Under the pieces are notes generated by a model. It was not told the DNA's origin. It saw only the letters and a list, made by a program, of their open reading frames with translations, and searched no databases. A DNA stretch of 64,000 nucleotides. Source: a bacterium. GTDB lineage: Bacteria; JADJOY01. This document shows, piece by piece, positions 1-6,671 of the stretch. The position numbers were made by a program, and so were the translations under genes. Every line of letters starts with the position of its first letter. Positions within the stretch are counted from its first letter, which is position 1. The stretch is taken from positions 266,370-330,369 of the forward strand of contig JAXLQJ010000002.1 in assembly GCA_046331705.1 (NCBI GenBank). The letters run 5' to 3'.

Positions 1-205
1 ATCCTCTACGAGGTCCACACGATCGAGCGCTTCCCGCGCGTGCAGGATTTCGCGTCGTATTGCCGGCTGGTGAAATGCAGTCGTGAGTCCGCGGGCAAGA
101 TCCACGGCACCGGCGGCGCCAAGATCGGGAACGTTCACCTCAAGTGGGCCTACTCGGAAGCCGCAACGCTCTTCCTGCACGGCAACCCCGAAGGCCAGCG
201 GCTAC
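1..205 (+). pseudogene. IS110-family transposase C-terminal fragment, truncated
   Basis: Frame 1 reads ILYEVHTIERFPRVQDFASYCRLVKCSRESAGKIHGTGGAKIGNVHLKWAYSEAA, typical of the IS110 Transposase_20 region. Similarity appears lost after EGQRLR; the 5' part is outside the window. Confidence 0.75.
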
Positions 206-293
206 GGGGGGCCTTGATCGGGGTAGTGATCGTGGACTCCGGCTCATTGTTTGAATGGAGGAATGCCCGGGTTGATTCCTTTACACGAGGCAG

Positions 294-444
294 GTCGAAC
301 GACCTGCCGTTCAGCAGCCAACGCCAAGGTCGCGTACGAGCGTAACACGGCCGCGGGCCGCGGGTGCAGCCCGCGGCGTCGCGGCATGAGCCCAACTCCG
401 AGCGGAAGCGCGTGGCGCTCGACTGCTGCAACGGCCGGTTGGGC
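294..444 (-). other. attC recombination site (151 bp)
   Basis: Minus strand: R'' GCCCAAC, 5 nt, L'' GTTGCAGC (one extra base), ..., L' GCTGAAC, 8 nt, R' GTTCGAC. Starts 7 nt after the stop of ORF 452..757. Confidence 0.75.
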
Positions 445-1424: not shown

Positions 1425-1790
1425 TCACCACTCACGCAGTTCCCAGTCATCATCGCGGATCACCGCGCCGAGCTTACGCGTCAGTTCGCTCGCGACGCGA
1501 TGTGTGGCGTGGTCGTCGCTCTCAATGCCGGGGACCGCGTTGAACGTGACCGTGCCGTCGGACCTACGCCAAAACGACGCCGTCCATTCGCCCTCGATCA
1601 GTACTTCGGCGTCTCCTGGGGAGACGCCGACCTTGATGCGGCGACCGTCAGGCAGTGGAACGGTCGCGTCGCCTTCAATGATGCGAACCCCTGGCGTAGT
1701 GGCCACGGCCGCTACCCACTCCTCCATCGAGAAGCCCGATACCTCCTCATCCTGCTCGCGATGAAGATGGAACTCAGCTGGCAGGGGCAC
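1425..1790 (-). CDS. Gene-cassette hypothetical protein (121 aa)
   Basis: Protein-like composition; lies between core GTTAGCC (1808-1814) and attC 1302-1363. Confidence 0.7.
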   Translation of the reverse strand: MPLPAEFHLHREQDEEVSGFSMEEWVAAVATTPGVRIIEGDATVPLPDGRRIKVGVSPGDAEVLIEGEWTASFWRRSDGTVTFNAVPGIESDDHATHRVASELTRKLGAVIRDDDWELREW

Positions 1791-1912
1791 TCCCTTCGTT
1801 CAGCCCGGGCTAACCCAGATGGAATGAGAAGGCTGACCTCCCGATCACGAGATGTCGTAAACGATTCTCAAGGTTGGATCAACGGGCTCGAAGCCCAAAC
1901 AGGAGGTCAGCC

Positions 1913-3052
1913 ATGAGCGATAGTGCCACGAAGTCCTTCGGATCGGAAGCGCAGGCCGCCTCGCTTCCGCCCCTCACCGCCGGCCTCGACGTCGGCGACC
2001 GCCACTCGACGATGTGCTTCATCGACGCCGCCGGCGAAACGGTCGAGCGTACGCGGGTGCGCACCACCTCCGAGGCGCTCCGGGGAGCATTCGGCCACCG
2101 CGCACCGCTGCGCATCGCCCTCGAGGTGGGTACCCACTCTCGATGGATCCGTCGGCTGCTCGTCGAGCTCGGTCACGAGGTGTTCGTCGCGAATCCACGT
2201 CGGGTCCGAGCGATCTACGAGAGCGACACGAAGACCGACAGCTCGGATGCCGAGATGCTCGCGCGACTCGCGCGGGTCGACCCGAAGCTTTTGTGTCCCG
2301 TCCGACATCGCCGCGAGGACCGAGCCCGGGCGCTCGCCGTGGTGCGCAGTCGCGACGGGCTCGTCCGCGCGCGCACTCTGCTCATCAACCACGTCCGCGG
2401 TGCCATCAAGCCGGTCGGCGGTCGCGTGAAGCACTGTTCGTCCGAGAGCTTCGCACGCCAGGCGCCGGAGCAGATTCCCGCGGAGCTGCAGGCGGTGCTT
2501 CAGCCCGTCATCGAGCAGATCGGCCACCTGACCCGCACCGTCCGAGAGTTCGATCGGCAGATCGAGCAGCTCTGTGAGCAATTCCCCGACGCACAGCGAC
2601 TGCGGGAGATTCCAAGCGTTGGTCCCGTGACCGCGCTCACCTTCGTTTTGACCGTCGACGACCCGGCGCGGTTCCAGAACGCCCGCATGATCGGACCCTA
2701 TCTCGGACTTTGCCCCCGGCGAAAACAAAGCGGCCGGGACGATCCGCAGCTCGGCATCACGAAAGCGGGCGACTCGTACCTGCGCAAGCTCGTCGTCACC
2801 TGCGCGCAGCACACGCTAGGCCCATTCGGCAAAGATAGCGCCTTGCGCCGCTGGGGACTCCAGCGAGCAGGCAGCGGCGATCGGATCGCCAAGAAGAAAG
2901 CGGTCGTTGGCGTCGCCCGGCGACTGACCGTCGTGATGCTGCACCTGTGGGTGAGTGGCGAAACCTACCGGCCGTTTCCGACGCCCGCGCCACCCGCGCG
3001 ACCGCCTTCCCCGGAAAAGACCGTCGAGAAGAAGGAGAAGAAGGCGGCATAG
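1913..3052 (+). CDS. IS110-family DEDD transposase/recombinase
   Basis: GLDVG, LEVG, KTDSSDA (DEDD); IPSVGPVTA; YLGLCPRRKQSG, GITKAGD. RBS AGGAGG precedes ATG 1913. Confidence 0.95.
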   Translation: MSDSATKSFGSEAQAASLPPLTAGLDVGDRHSTMCFIDAAGETVERTRVRTTSEALRGAFGHRAPLRIALEVGTHSRWIRRLLVELGHEVFVANPRRVRAIYESDTKTDSSDAEMLARLARVDPKLLCPVRHRREDRARALAVVRSRDGLVRARTLLINHVRGAIKPVGGRVKHCSSESFARQAPEQIPAELQAVLQPVIEQIGHLTRTVREFDRQIEQLCEQFPDAQRLREIPSVGPVTALTFVLTVDDPARFQNARMIGPYLGLCPRRKQSGRDDPQLGITKAGDSYLRKLVVTCAQHTLGPFGKDSALRRWGLQRAGSGDRIAKKKAVVGVARRLTVVMLHLWVSGETYRPFPTPAPPARPPSPEKTVEKKEKKAA

Positions 3053-3059
3053 CCGGCGA

Positions 3060-3430
3060 CTCAGAGAAACGAACACCAGATGGAACCGATGGAGCAACGG
3101 AAGGCCGCACGGCGCGGGTCGCGCGATCTCGGCGACCAGCACCGGCCGCCTCGTCCGGGTGACTGCGAGCTGAGCTCGGGCCCCTCCGGGGCAGACCGCA
3201 ACCCAGATGGCAGCACCAGGGCGAGTCGGACTCCAACCTGCACCGAGCTCACCGAACGAGCTCACCCGAGTGCGAATGGAAGCGTGGCGTCCGGTGGTTC
3301 GCCCGCCTTCGATCGTCGGCCCGCGACGGTCGGCCTTCCCGACTGCTCTTCGAGAAACCGTTCATCTACCCGCGAATACAAGGCTCAAGAACGGGCACCG
3401 CCGCCTCAACAAGGACGTGAACTTGAAAGG
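3060..3430 (+). ncRNA. Putative bridge/seek RNA region of the IS1111-type element
   Basis: Non-coding region between the transposase stop and the right IR, with four 8-11 nt matches to the element's junction and flank sequences. RNA boundaries are not determined. Confidence 0.55.
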
Positions 3431-3489
3431 GAGAGCCTTCTCATGGAAGCTCAGCAGCGGCCCCGGACTGAACCGTACCGAGACTATGG

Positions 3490-3773
3490 TCTTTCGCTGG
3501 TTCTGCTCCCCAGCCCGCAACGAACTGGCTTCGAGCCTGACCTTTTGATTGGGACGGGAGAGGATACGAAATGGTTTCTAGGCCGCCGCGTGTGATGCGC
3601 GGCAACCGCCGCGAGGGGTTGAGCCTCGATAGGTGTTTGGTGCAGCGCCACGTTCGTGGTGCGAGCTGAAACAAAGTCAGAGTCGCGTCAAGCGCCAGGC
3701 CAGATCTCGAGGAATTGCGGTGAGAACAAACCGCTAGGGAGAGGTGTGCGCTTGACGGACGGGGCCTTATAGG
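3490..3773 (+). mobile_element. Right-end remnant of a second putative IS110-family element
   Basis: Non-coding, ends CGCTTGACGGACGGGGCCTTATAGG one nt before attC core GTTCGGC (3775-3781); the same end occurs at 796-821. Left boundary is approximate. Confidence 0.45.
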
Positions 3774-3787
3774 AGTTCGGCTCAGTG

Positions 3788-4257
3788 TCAAAACCAGCCT
3801 TGTGCGTGAAGCACCCACAGGTTGGGATGAATGCATGTCACAACGAATCCACACAGGCACCAAGAAGTCGAGTCGAAGTGATTATCGACTGCGACCAATG
3901 TCCATCTCGAACTCAAGCACCGTCTCTCGATATCCGACAGGTAGTACGAGCGGTACGGGTACGACAACGAGTGCGAGAAGGCCAGCGAACGCCATGTCCT
4001 GTTCGTAATACCACCAGACAGTGTGATCGTGGTCCTCGACACGGTCGGGGTCACCCCATAGCGCTCGGACGATTTCTTCTGTAAGGTTCTGGCGGGTCCC
4101 GGGGCGGGGTGCCTGACAACCACGACACACGCCCCCGCTCTTCCGCTAGATAGACAAACGAGCCGCGCAGACGGCATCCCCTGAGGATCCCGCCCATGCA
4201 TCCGGCGGTGATCTGGACAATTGCCAGGAGCGCGGCTGTGCGGAACCGGCGATTCAT
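3788..4257 (-). pseudogene. Frameshifted cassette gene, lipoprotein-like
   Basis: Protein-like pieces in three frames (MNRRFRTAALLAIVQITAGC; EEIVRALWGDPDRVEDHDHTVWWYYEQDMAFAGLLALVVVPVPLVLPVG; WCLCGFVV), ending just before R'' GCCGAAC. Confidence 0.45.
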
Positions 4258-4731
4258 ACCGCCCTGGTCGCGTGCTCGCCATTGGCCTTCCAACGAAAAG
4301 GATTCTATCCAGGGTACCGGCCGAGCACCACGCGCCCATTGAAGATCTGGCCCTCGTCACCTTCTTCAGTGAGACCTTGCATGCGTGCCCCCGAGTTCGC
4401 ACACCTGATCAGCGTGTCGTCCTTCCCTGCGAGAACGTCGCGCTCGATGCACGGCTTTCGGTGCCCCCCGGCGACCCGGCTTCACCTGTCGTGACCGTGG
4501 CGTTCGACGTGGCCCGCGCTCTGGTACCAACGCGGTGCGTGCCCAGGCACAGGGTGCGCGTGACGCGGATCGGGCGGCACCTCGGCCCGCATCGCCGTGC
4601 TTTCAAGCTCAAGCTAAAGGATCCCGTGAAGGACAACCCGCTGAAATCACAGCACGACCGCGCCTCACCGCCTACGGCTTTCAAGGAAGGGGAAGTCCTA
4701 TGGGCATGACTCCGTGTCTGATTCACGGCGC

Positions 4732-5295: not shown

Positions 5296-6671
5296 GAGGT
5301 AGCCTCAGGACGTGTGGAAATGAAGTGAAGGCGGCGTAGCCTTCCGGTTGAGCCATCAACCACCGGGCCCCATGCCCGGCCAAGGAAGGAGACACCGCCG
5401 TGGAGGATCGAAGCATCGGCAGGTCGAAGGCGTCAACGGTCGTGTGGGAGAACATCGAGGAGTTCGCGCGCCTCAAGATCCAAGAGTTTCTCCAAGCGAT
5501 GCTCGAAGAGGAAGTCACCGAGCTCTTGGGCCGAAAGAAGTCGGAGCGCCGGTCGGCCGTGGACGCTGCCGAGGGCTACCGCAATGGCTTCGGCAAGGAG
5601 CGTCGCGTCGCGCTGAAGACCGGAACGGTGACCGTGCGACGTCCACGGGTGCGCGGTCTCGAAGAGCGCTTCGAGAGCCGGGTGCTGCCGCTCTTCAAGC
5701 GCCGCACCGAGGCGGTGGCGGGGATGTTGCCAGAGCTCTACCTGCATGGACTGGCGCAGCGAGATTTCGAGCTCGCGCTGCGCGGCCTCCTCGGTGAGGG
5801 TGCGCCACTCTCAGCGAGCTCGATCGAGCGCCTGCGCGCCAAGTGGGTGCTGGAGCATGAGACCTGGGCGAACCGATCGCTGGCCGATCTCGAGATCGTG
5901 TACCTGTGGGCCGACGGGCTGTACGTGAAGGCCGGTCTCGACGACCAGAAGGCGGCGTTGCTCGTGGTGATCGGCGCTCGTCGGGATGGGCAGAAGGTGA
6001 TCCTCGCGATCGAGAGCGGGCATCGAGAGTCGAAGGAATCCTGGTCCGCTGTGCTCCGCGATCTCAAGCGGCGCGGACTACGGGCGCCACGAACGCTGAC
6101 GGCAGACGGACACCTGGGAATCTGGCCGGCGCTGGCCGAGATCTTTCCGACGACCGAGCAGCAGCGCTGCTGGAACCACAAGATCGTGAACGTGCTCGAC
6201 CAGCTCCCGCGGAAGCTGCAAGACGAGGCGCGGGAACTGGTGTGCCAGATCCCGTATGCCGAGACGCGAGCGAAGGCCGAGCGCCTCCGAGATCGATTCG
6301 TCGATCGCTACGGGAGGGCGTACCCCAAGGCGGCCGAGACCTTGAAGCGCGACTGGGACCGGATGATGACCTTTTACGGTTTCCCGAAGGAGCACTGGAA
6401 GCACCTTCGGACGAGCAACGTGGTGGAGTCACCGTTCGCCTCGGTGCGCCTGCGGACGGCGGCAGGAAAGCGCTACAAGCGTGTGGCGAATGCGACCGCA
6501 CTGATTTGGCGATTGCTCATGGTCGCGGAGAAAAGTTTCCGGCGACTCGACCACCCGCACTTGCTGGCCGAGGTTGCGGAAGGGGCAAAATACGTCGATG
6601 GACTGCGCGTCACGAAGGAGACCGAGAAGGCTGCTGCCTAACCTCGTTTACACACGTCTTGACTAAACCTC
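5296..6671 (+). mobile_element. IS256-family insertion sequence
   Basis: Imperfect ~30-bp terminal IRs: GAGGTAGCCTCAGGACGTGTGGAAATGAAG versus the reverse complement of the right end, GAGGTTTAGTCAAGACGTGTGTAAACGAGG. No flanking duplication. Confidence 0.85.
5400..6641 (+). CDS. IS256-family transposase
   Basis: YRNG, YLWADGLYVK, TADGHLG, QRCWNHK, LRTSNVVES Mutator-type DDE motifs. Confidence 0.95.
   Translation: MEDRSIGRSKASTVVWENIEEFARLKIQEFLQAMLEEEVTELLGRKKSERRSAVDAAEGYRNGFGKERRVALKTGTVTVRRPRVRGLEERFESRVLPLFKRRTEAVAGMLPELYLHGLAQRDFELALRGLLGEGAPLSASSIERLRAKWVLEHETWANRSLADLEIVYLWADGLYVKAGLDDQKAALLVVIGARRDGQKVILAIESGHRESKESWSAVLRDLKRRGLRAPRTLTADGHLGIWPALAEIFPTTEQQRCWNHKIVNVLDQLPRKLQDEARELVCQIPYAETRAKAERLRDRFVDRYGRAYPKAAETLKRDWDRMMTFYGFPKEHWKHLRTSNVVESPFASVRLRTAAGKRYKRVANATALIWRLLMVAEKSFRRLDHPHLLAEVAEGAKYVDGLRVTKETEKAAA

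Follow-up and report, generated by a model that had tools for sequence, protein, structure and literature searches.

An IS1111-type insertion element with a predicted guide RNA, inserted in an attC-like repeat of a bacterium found in activated-sludge data sets

The window, by which we mean the whole analysed stretch of 64,000 nucleotides, comes from a GC-rich bacterium that occurs in activated-sludge data sets, and at positions 1817-3447 it very probably holds an insertion sequence of the IS1111 type that has a structured guide RNA and sits, in one fixed orientation, in an attC-like repeat of an integron. What is established here is how the element is built, that its non-coding region has a conserved fold, that the guide segments covary with flanks and termini, and that the target is confined to attC-like repeats. 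Experiments on ISEc11, ISKpn4, ISPa11 and IS621 lead us to expect that the RNA would be produced, would bind the recombinase and would direct both excision as a circle and insertion. IS1111 elements that target attC sites, and their seekRNA, have already been published, as described in PMC11187229, and the present element is a further example of them and not a new idea.

A preliminary description of this DNA had noticed four short segments in the non-coding region 3' of the recombinase gene that recur at the element's ends, and all eight strings were found where it had placed them. Segment a, AACCCAGATGG, lies at 3200-3210 and 1812-1822; segment b, CCAGATGGAA, at 3076-3085 and 1815-1824; segment c, ATGGAAGC, at 3276-3283 and 3443-3450; and segment d, GCTGAGCT, at 3169-3176, is the reverse complement of 3448-3455. 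The element that carries them is an intact one of the IS1111 type (IS110 family), with the following parts.

1809-1816, + strand: box end of an attC-like repeat, forming the left target flank GCTAACCC; its last five nucleotides, AACCC, recur in the RNA at 3200-3204
1817-1823, + strand: left terminal extension AGATGGA; its AGAT start is conserved in 53 relatives, and the bases upstream vary
First two bases from 1817, and again 3448-3449: core dinucleotide AG
1824-1834, + strand: left subterminal inverted repeat ATGAGAAGGCT, also present in relatives
1913-3052, + strand: intact DEDD transposase/recombinase gene, 379 aa
3434-3444, + strand: right subterminal inverted repeat AGCCTTCTCAT
3445-3447, + strand: right extension GGA
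3448-3469, + strand: right target flank AGCTCAGCAGCGGCCCCGGACT, the core AG and part of the attC-like repeat

The inverted repeat is perfect, with 11 of 11 bp shared by 1824-1834 and 3434-3444, and the extensions are asymmetric, 7 nt on the left (the IS1111 group has 7 or 6) and 3 nt on the right. Upstream of the gene there are 78 nt between the left repeat and the start codon, and downstream of it the non-coding region extends over 381 nt (3053-3433). The recombinase matches the Pfam families PF01548 (DEDD_Tnp_IS110, 1.4e-21) and PF02371 (Transposase_20, 2.3e-20), and among 8000 scored, 7724 homologues reach E<=1e-30. Residues D26/D29, E71, D109 and D112 are conserved in its alignment (A1), and so are G265, P268 and G274 of the stretch GLCPRRKQSG, which fits the C-terminal motif GL-P----S/TG that PMC11187229 gives as a feature of IS1111. 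The same source describes IS1111 elements as having subterminal repeats of 11-13 bp, beyond which they extend for a further 7 bp at the left end and 3 bp at the right end, and this anatomy places the ends at 1817 and 3447 with an AG core at both junctions. Judged by its sequence, the element has those defining features of the IS1111 group that were tested.

For comparison, an alignment of 37 homologues was used in a search that gave 80 loci with 44-57% protein identity, spread over Acidobacteriota, Gemmatimonadota, Planctomycetota, Actinomycetota, Chloroflexota and other metagenome-assembled genomes. A single-protein scan of genome contigs found nothing, and 60 related genomes gave only matches of 31% and 28% identity. 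An automatic search of the 80 loci and the window found the same repeat (ATGAGAAGG.../...CCTTCTCAT) in 58 of these 81 elements; the other 23 were excluded, having no ATGAG.../...CTCAT repeat that the search could find, and five more were excluded for short flanks, which left 53. Both sequence anchors used in the guide test were present in 45 (the eight others were excluded from that test), and 40 of these were non-redundant. The nearest relatives, with 45-57% identity, target unrelated sequences.

In the relatives AGATGGR (7, sometimes 8 nt) precedes the repeat and RGA followed by AG comes after it, and directly outside AGAT on the left and RGA-AG on the right their sequences vary. A copy of the element on a metagenome contig (L098), 99.88% identical, has a different left flank that ends in AACCC, and its right flank is AGAGCTCAGC... 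The contig of a related copy, with seven other letters and one gap over 1817-1897, diverges from the window exactly before 1817. The preliminary description had set the ends at the inverted repeats (1824/1825 and 3442/3443); from the flanks of the relatives, L098 and the diverging contig they are better placed at 1817 and 3447, and this is why the matches had seemed to span flank plus element. We also considered ends at 1812 and 3469, drawn from the similarity among three genomic copies and from an 18-bp palindrome formed by the joined flanks. They were rejected because the outer shared bases belong to the target, all copies occupying one repeat family that also occurs elsewhere without the element, and the left flank by itself is already nearly palindromic.

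The long non-coding region contains what we predict to be the guide RNA. When the non-coding regions of the relatives were aligned on the shared AGAT they showed one architecture, beginning with ...GGGUGACUGCG, a variable stretch of 10-11 nt, a hairpin, CG and a variable stretch of 5-6 nt, and continuing with AGAU.GCAGCACCC..., CGGAC, CCCAACA, UGCAC, a hairpin and ..AGAGUGCG.AU(G/A)GAAGC. An nhmmer profile of 38 relatives, built without the window, matches the window at 3147-3290 with E 1.2e-24; in the rest of the genome it matches two decayed copies of the element more weakly and nothing else. As a side observation, positions 5019-5076 of contig C66 (G000; locus L005) weakly match window 3272-3333, which takes in the donor guide and what follows it, with 79% DNA identity over 58 nt; the RNA profile missed them. 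The parts of the RNA, and the segments that we assign as guides, are these.

3147-3290, + strand: predicted seekRNA/bridge RNA gene, from the profile and the structure counts
3153-3166, + strand: 5' strand of the closing helix P1, with bulged A3162, pairing with 3210-3218 and 3228-3231
3168-3177, + strand: target guide T, which contains segment d; reverse complement of the right target flank, with predicted top-strand pairing
3178-3198, + strand: hairpin P2 (helix 3) between the target guides, with z<-1 in 36 of 39 relatives
3200-3210, + strand: target guide B (segment a), made up of AACCC of the left flank, the AG core and ATGG, the next bases of the left end; predicted bottom-strand pairing, G3210 being already part of helix P1
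3232-3238, + strand: weak candidate for the right-donor guide, TCCAACC, with a TCCA that is reverse-complementary to TGGA at 1820-1823
3240-3273, + strand: second module, helix P3, GCAC 3240-3243 with GUGC 3270-3273
3245-3250 with 3258-3263, + strand: hairpin P4 inside P3, with z<-1 in 32 of 39 relatives
3276-3282, + strand: donor guide (segment c without its last base), ATGGAAG, equal to the right terminus 3443-3447 and the AG core

A structure of 26 pairs in five helices was written by hand and scored on an alignment of 39 sequences. Its positions are paired in 89.7% of cells, compared with 81.3% in shuffles (none of 500 reached the observed value) and 30.6-45.9% in slid controls, and compensatory changes were seen in 101 cells where 31.6 were expected; the structure was derived from the same alignment that was used for counting, which biases these figures in its favour. 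In P1, helix 2 is paired in 97.2% of cells and has compensatory changes at four of nine pairs; in the second module, helix 4 is 100% paired, and helix 5 has compensatory changes at all five of its pairs. RNAalifold recovers the closing helix P1 and helix P3, and hairpins P2 and P4 are retained despite unlike sequences and lengths. Several helices contain G-U pairs, in keeping with a + strand RNA. A further closing helix beyond P1, CGCC/GGCG, was unsupported (13-29 of 39 paired). The window's own sequence folds no better than its shuffles (z -1.14, with an equally good fold in 29 of 200), and a search of positions 1500-4000 against Rfam 15 gave no family in that library, only two chance matches with E about 6. 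The first module measures about 79 nt (3153-3231) and the entire fold about 144 nt. The suggestion in the preliminary description that this is an RNA-guided element of the IS110/IS1111 type is borne out to the extent that the long 3' non-coding region holds a conserved and covarying fold, and the predicted RNA has the structural and guide features of a seekRNA or bridge RNA that were tested.

The variable parts of the target guides follow the DNA outside the element. T was taken as the 12 nt after ACUGCG and B as the 8 nt before AGAU.GCAG, anchors that ignore the flanks. In 20 of the 40 elements T matched the reverse complement of its own right flank over at least 8 nt, compared with 4 of 1546 comparisons with the flanks of other elements, and the mean match was 7.0 for own flanks and 3.1 for others. 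B matched the end of its own left flank over at least 4 nt in 25 of 40, against 7 of 1546 for other elements' flanks (means 3.8 and 0.39). The third base of the donor guide, G or A, tracks the element's own right extension, GGA or AGA, in 39 of 39 (one element lacks the anchor), and the left end, the right flank and the RNA all have the core AG in 37 of 40. Under a strict rule 11 of 53 relatives had no B match, and in three related loci (L082, L083 and L086) no left-junction match of at least 7 was found, only a T match. A fourth stretch, CCCAACA before P3, shows weak complementarity to the left extension, with a mean of 3.7 for own extensions and 3.0 for others, and its variants pair tellingly, CCUUA with TAAGG and CUCAA with TTGAG; this weakly suggests a right-donor guide at 3232-3238. 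We also looked for a continuation of the donor guide into the right flank, a "handshake", and rejected it for the relatives listed: the bases after the core do not follow the flank. The window's C3283, the last base of segment c, is a coincidence.

Segments a, c and d lie exactly where relatives have segments that covary with their own flanks, the check that the preliminary description had proposed, or with their termini, and b does not; the roles that it could not assign can be given as target guides for a and d and donor guide for c, b being no feature of the family. An upstream junction match like that of b, of at least 6, occurs in 4 of 40 elements and in 43 of 1544 controls, and only the window reaches 9; on these counts b was rejected as a family-wide guide. 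Segment b (3076-3085, + strand; identical to the left junction 1815-1824) is lineage-specific, lies 24 nt behind the stop codon and outside the conserved fold, and is kept in all three genomic copies.

We propose that 3147-3290 in the 3' non-coding region is the gene of a structured RNA, about 140 nt long, which is the counterpart of the seekRNA or bridge RNA by which DEDD recombinases are guided. Helix P1 would close an internal loop around hairpin P2, and the loop would present both target guides. Its 5' side, 3168-3177, would pair with the top strand of the right target half, that is the core G and AGCTCAGC; at the canonical site 3169-3176 is complementary to AGCTCAGC and C3177 to the core G. 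The 3' side, 3200-3206, would pair with the bottom strand of the left half, AACCC and the core AG, and B runs on for another 4 nt that repeat the left end of the element itself. At the AG core, where the strands would be exchanged, both target matches would meet. Behind the P3/P4 module, 3276-3282 would read the right terminus and the core as donor guide, and a weak right-donor guide may sit at 3232-3238. T is located 5' of B, and they overlap at the AG core, which is the insertion point. For IS1111 seekRNAs PMC11187229 describes a top-strand match that lies 5' of the bottom-strand match, with overlap at the insertion point, and for the IS621 bridge RNA PMC11208158 describes two guides that meet at the core dinucleotide, one pairing with the left half on its bottom strand and the other with the right half on its top strand. 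The run of B into the element end recalls the IS621 bases that, as PMC11208158 reports, pair with the partner DNA after strand exchange, the "handshake". By a parallel with what is described in PMC13626964, it could also be the left-junction sequence that has to be read for excision.

The target deduced from this register is the 15-bp AACCC-AG-AGCTCAGC, divided as 5+2+8, and the site of L098 is exactly this sequence. The repeat in which it lies is about 90 nt long and was found by genome search in about 21 copies (E<1e-3), in arrays of one orientation on contigs C23, C30, C59 and C100 with a spacing of 0.3-2.2 kb. It ends with AAC and GTT boxes, and its inner arms covary. Three full-length integron integrases score above the TIGR02249 cut-off (C59:21710-22654, C44:3476-4420 and C23:90368-91282) and each adjoins such repeats. 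From the arrays, the boxes and the adjoining integrases we therefore read the repeat as the attC of this organism, and the suggestion in the preliminary description that the guides are aimed at attC boxes agrees with flanks that look like integron repeats beside integrases. In all three cases it is the 3' end of the integrase, and not the 5' end, that faces the repeats. Each of the four copies of the element that we have seen occupies this repeat, with the AACCC box end on one side and AGCTCAGC on the other, and all are oriented alike. The exact 15-mer does not occur in the 8.2-Mb genome; with one mismatch there are four sites, all in attC-like repeats beside integron integrases, and with two mismatches there are 14, one of them in a repeat. 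In 9 of 12 intervals between repeats the longest frame points against the orientation that we give the repeats, and the side of the site taken by the element is therefore probably the R' end, where cassettes are exchanged, to which this points weakly.

In the window itself the right flank reads AG-CTCAGC and is 2 nt shorter than the family register AG-AGCTCAGC, so that this copy occupies a site that is shifted or was altered later. The repeat goes on for only 22 nt after the element, and beyond 3469 the sequence departs from the consensus (a partial match, E 0.058). An exact 13-mer, AACCCAGCTCAGC, which is the reconstituted site of the window, was at one stage taken as the target and has been superseded by the 15-mer register; it has two exact matches in the genome, both unoccupied and outside repeats, and a repeat at C30:15221 matches it with one mismatch.

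That the matches are due to chance, or are a by-product of three copies that go back to a single insertion and were carried about with their flanks by duplication of cassettes or segments, deserves hardly any credence. We compared 2000 dinucleotide shuffles of 3053-3433 with both junctions, and the 8-nt matches are by themselves at the level of chance, being reached in 593 of 2000 shuffles for the right junction on the same strand and in 459 of 2000 for the reverse complement, and the window copy and the C54 copy, which share about 0.9 kb of right flank, do not count as independent. Segments c and d accordingly gain their weight solely from what the relatives show. A same-strand match of at least 11 nt to the left junction is rare, however (3 of 2000 shuffles), and in any of the four match classes a match of at least 11 nt arose in 29 of 2000 and one of at least 10 nt in 120 of 2000. 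The 11-mer of a and the 10-mer of b were found only at the places given above within the 64-kb window; segment a is not a matter of chance, and segment b probably is not either. The same positional pattern recurs in 40 unrelated elements from other phyla, and L098, with its different left flank, is an independent site, which also speaks against duplication.

We think it very unlikely that the repeated strings are features of the DNA, such as recombinase sites or internal copies of the termini, and not guides in an RNA. Segments a and b both repeat the left junction and c repeats the right terminus, and since the termini are conserved in the family the internal copies could be sites for a protein; but the variable parts of T and B follow the flanking DNA of the host, which lies outside the element, the guides lie in the loop of a covarying fold whose G-U pairs hold only for an RNA of the + strand, and homologous systems act through RNA according to PMC11187229 and PMC11208158. 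Just as small a probability falls to the idea that the recombinase system is guided and the copy in the window stranded or inactive, its RNA no longer matching what excision needs. This would suit the right flank, 2 nt short of the predicted register, and an attC consensus that stops at 3469. The reading frame, the inverted repeats and all guide segments are nevertheless intact, 8 nt of T are still complementary to the flank from the core onward, and the 99.88% identical copy of L098 occupies the canonical site.

Among known systems the element is most like the IS1111-attC group (ISKpn4, ISPst6, ISPa21/ISPa25), whose members, as described in PMC11187229, insert in one orientation at one end of the attC sites of cassettes; the same source gives the ISKpn4 seekRNA as about 82-86 nt long and derived from the downstream non-coding region. 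It shares with this group the IS1111 organisation, the insertion in attC in one orientation and the order of T before B, and differs in having a host with its own attC family and a recombinase that is distant from the plasmid-borne relatives. A tblastn search of the recombinase against 72,556 plasmids gave 501 Klebsiella records in which every best match was below 60% identity, and the 25 matches listed had 32.9-35.5%. Because of this distance, and because the nearest relatives aim elsewhere, the attC targeting looks like a separate retargeting within an environmental clade. It is possible, if rather improbable, that two things hold jointly: that attC targeting arose here independently of the ISKpn4 lineage, by way of a large uncharacterised soil and sludge clade of IS1111 elements whose core is AG, whose target code is 5+2+8 and whose donor guide is placed behind P3, and that b is a functional third reader of the left junction which could, for example, favour or restrain excision.

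ISEc11 and ISPa11, for which PMC11187229 reports an experimentally shown seekRNA, with a short RNA of 82 nt and a long one of 154 nt from the 3' non-coding region, subterminal repeats of 11-13 bp, 7/3 bp extensions and a junction promoter in the circle, resemble the element in the sizes of repeats and extensions, and in the lack of target duplication if one repeat copy is assigned to the element. Their 82 and 154 nt compare with predicted lengths of about 79 nt for the first module and about 144 nt for the whole fold in the window, which has other targets and other repeat sequences. With the IS621 bridge RNA described in PMC11208158 it has in common two guides in an internal loop around a stem-loop and a second module that reads the donor. 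It is unlike IS621 in having the RNA gene in the right end and not in the left, the target guides in reversed order, AG and not CT as core, long inverted repeats, and a donor guide that lies behind helix P3 and not within a symmetrical loop. According to the predictions of Durrant et al., 93.0% of IS1111 elements have a bridge RNA in their right end (PMC11208160).

In these families the joined ends make a junction promoter, as described in PMC11187229, and in the window the joining of 3447 to 1817 would by consensus match alone create one from the following hexamer.

3422-3427, + strand: -35-like TTGAAA, with GAAGAT of the joined 3447/1817 at 17-nt spacing; putative junction promoter

In 25 of 40 relatives the best -35 hexamer listed is TTGACA. 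Many relatives (e.g. L015 and L074) have, about 10-30 nt upstream of the -35-like TTGACA near their right end, a conserved hairpin GGCCGCCACGUCGGCC that may be a terminator or a processing site of a long RNA; nothing in the window obviously corresponds to it. In four RNA libraries, contigs span 1887-2083, 2439-2675, 2946-3134, 3025-3175 and 3301-3449 with 0-1 differences, the last three at low depth, and in these four runs none covers 3176-3300 and none has RNA ends. They attest presence in the libraries and not transcription, as carry-over of DNA is possible. Words of the element are present in DNA runs of activated-sludge and related metagenomes. Fourteen DNA runs contain at least 94% of the sampled words, and the rows with all or part of the stretch belong to 13 studies, some of which may have supplied the genome.

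What these results offer is an annotated natural RNA-guided recombinase aimed at integron sites outside the clinical Proteobacteria, with ends, core, guides and a 15-bp target taken from sequence. The known mechanism is left unchanged by them, and a specialist will not be surprised. An insertion a few bases from the box end of attC should split the site and freeze the neighbouring cassettes, and in this way chromosomal integrons could be shaped by such elements. For the mining of bridge and seek recombinases, the clade of some 40 relatives compared here, which all differ in their target, is a natural retargeting set.

The genome (8.17 Mb in 118 contigs) holds three copies of the element. Those on C54 and C30 are 94% and 92% identical to that of the window, and in both the reading frame is broken and the guides are decayed. 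To the right of the window copy, the flank 3470-4325 is duplicated beside the C54 copy (L004 1501-2387), with 93.5% identity over 894 nt, and at least these two copies spread together with their flanking DNA and not by transposition, so that they are not independent insertions. On C54 a block of 1349 bp lies exactly between ...GGACT and GAACCG, which adjoin in the window (3469/3470), and it consists of the rest of the attC, a second IS110 gene and its 3' region. It may be an attC-targeting IS110-type element with an attC-like left end, or it may come from a cassette or recombination event. Three occurrences of this second, different IS110-family transposase are known in the genome, and in every one a copy of the attC-like repeat immediately precedes it (window 1-345, G000 C2:264885-266715; L002 3153-4501 on C54; and C10:50355-50890), and the window and C54 copies have 83% DNA identity over about 200 nt.

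Two frames to the left of the element, both on the - strand, could be cassette genes, namely the gene of a DUF4262 protein at 729-1286 and a frame of 121 aa without Pfam match at 1425-1790, the start of which abuts the attC box left of the element. Two kb downstream there is an intact transposase gene of the Mutator/IS256 type (window 5400-6641; Pfam Transposase_mut, 9.1e-59), and the neighbourhood is therefore rich in mobile elements.
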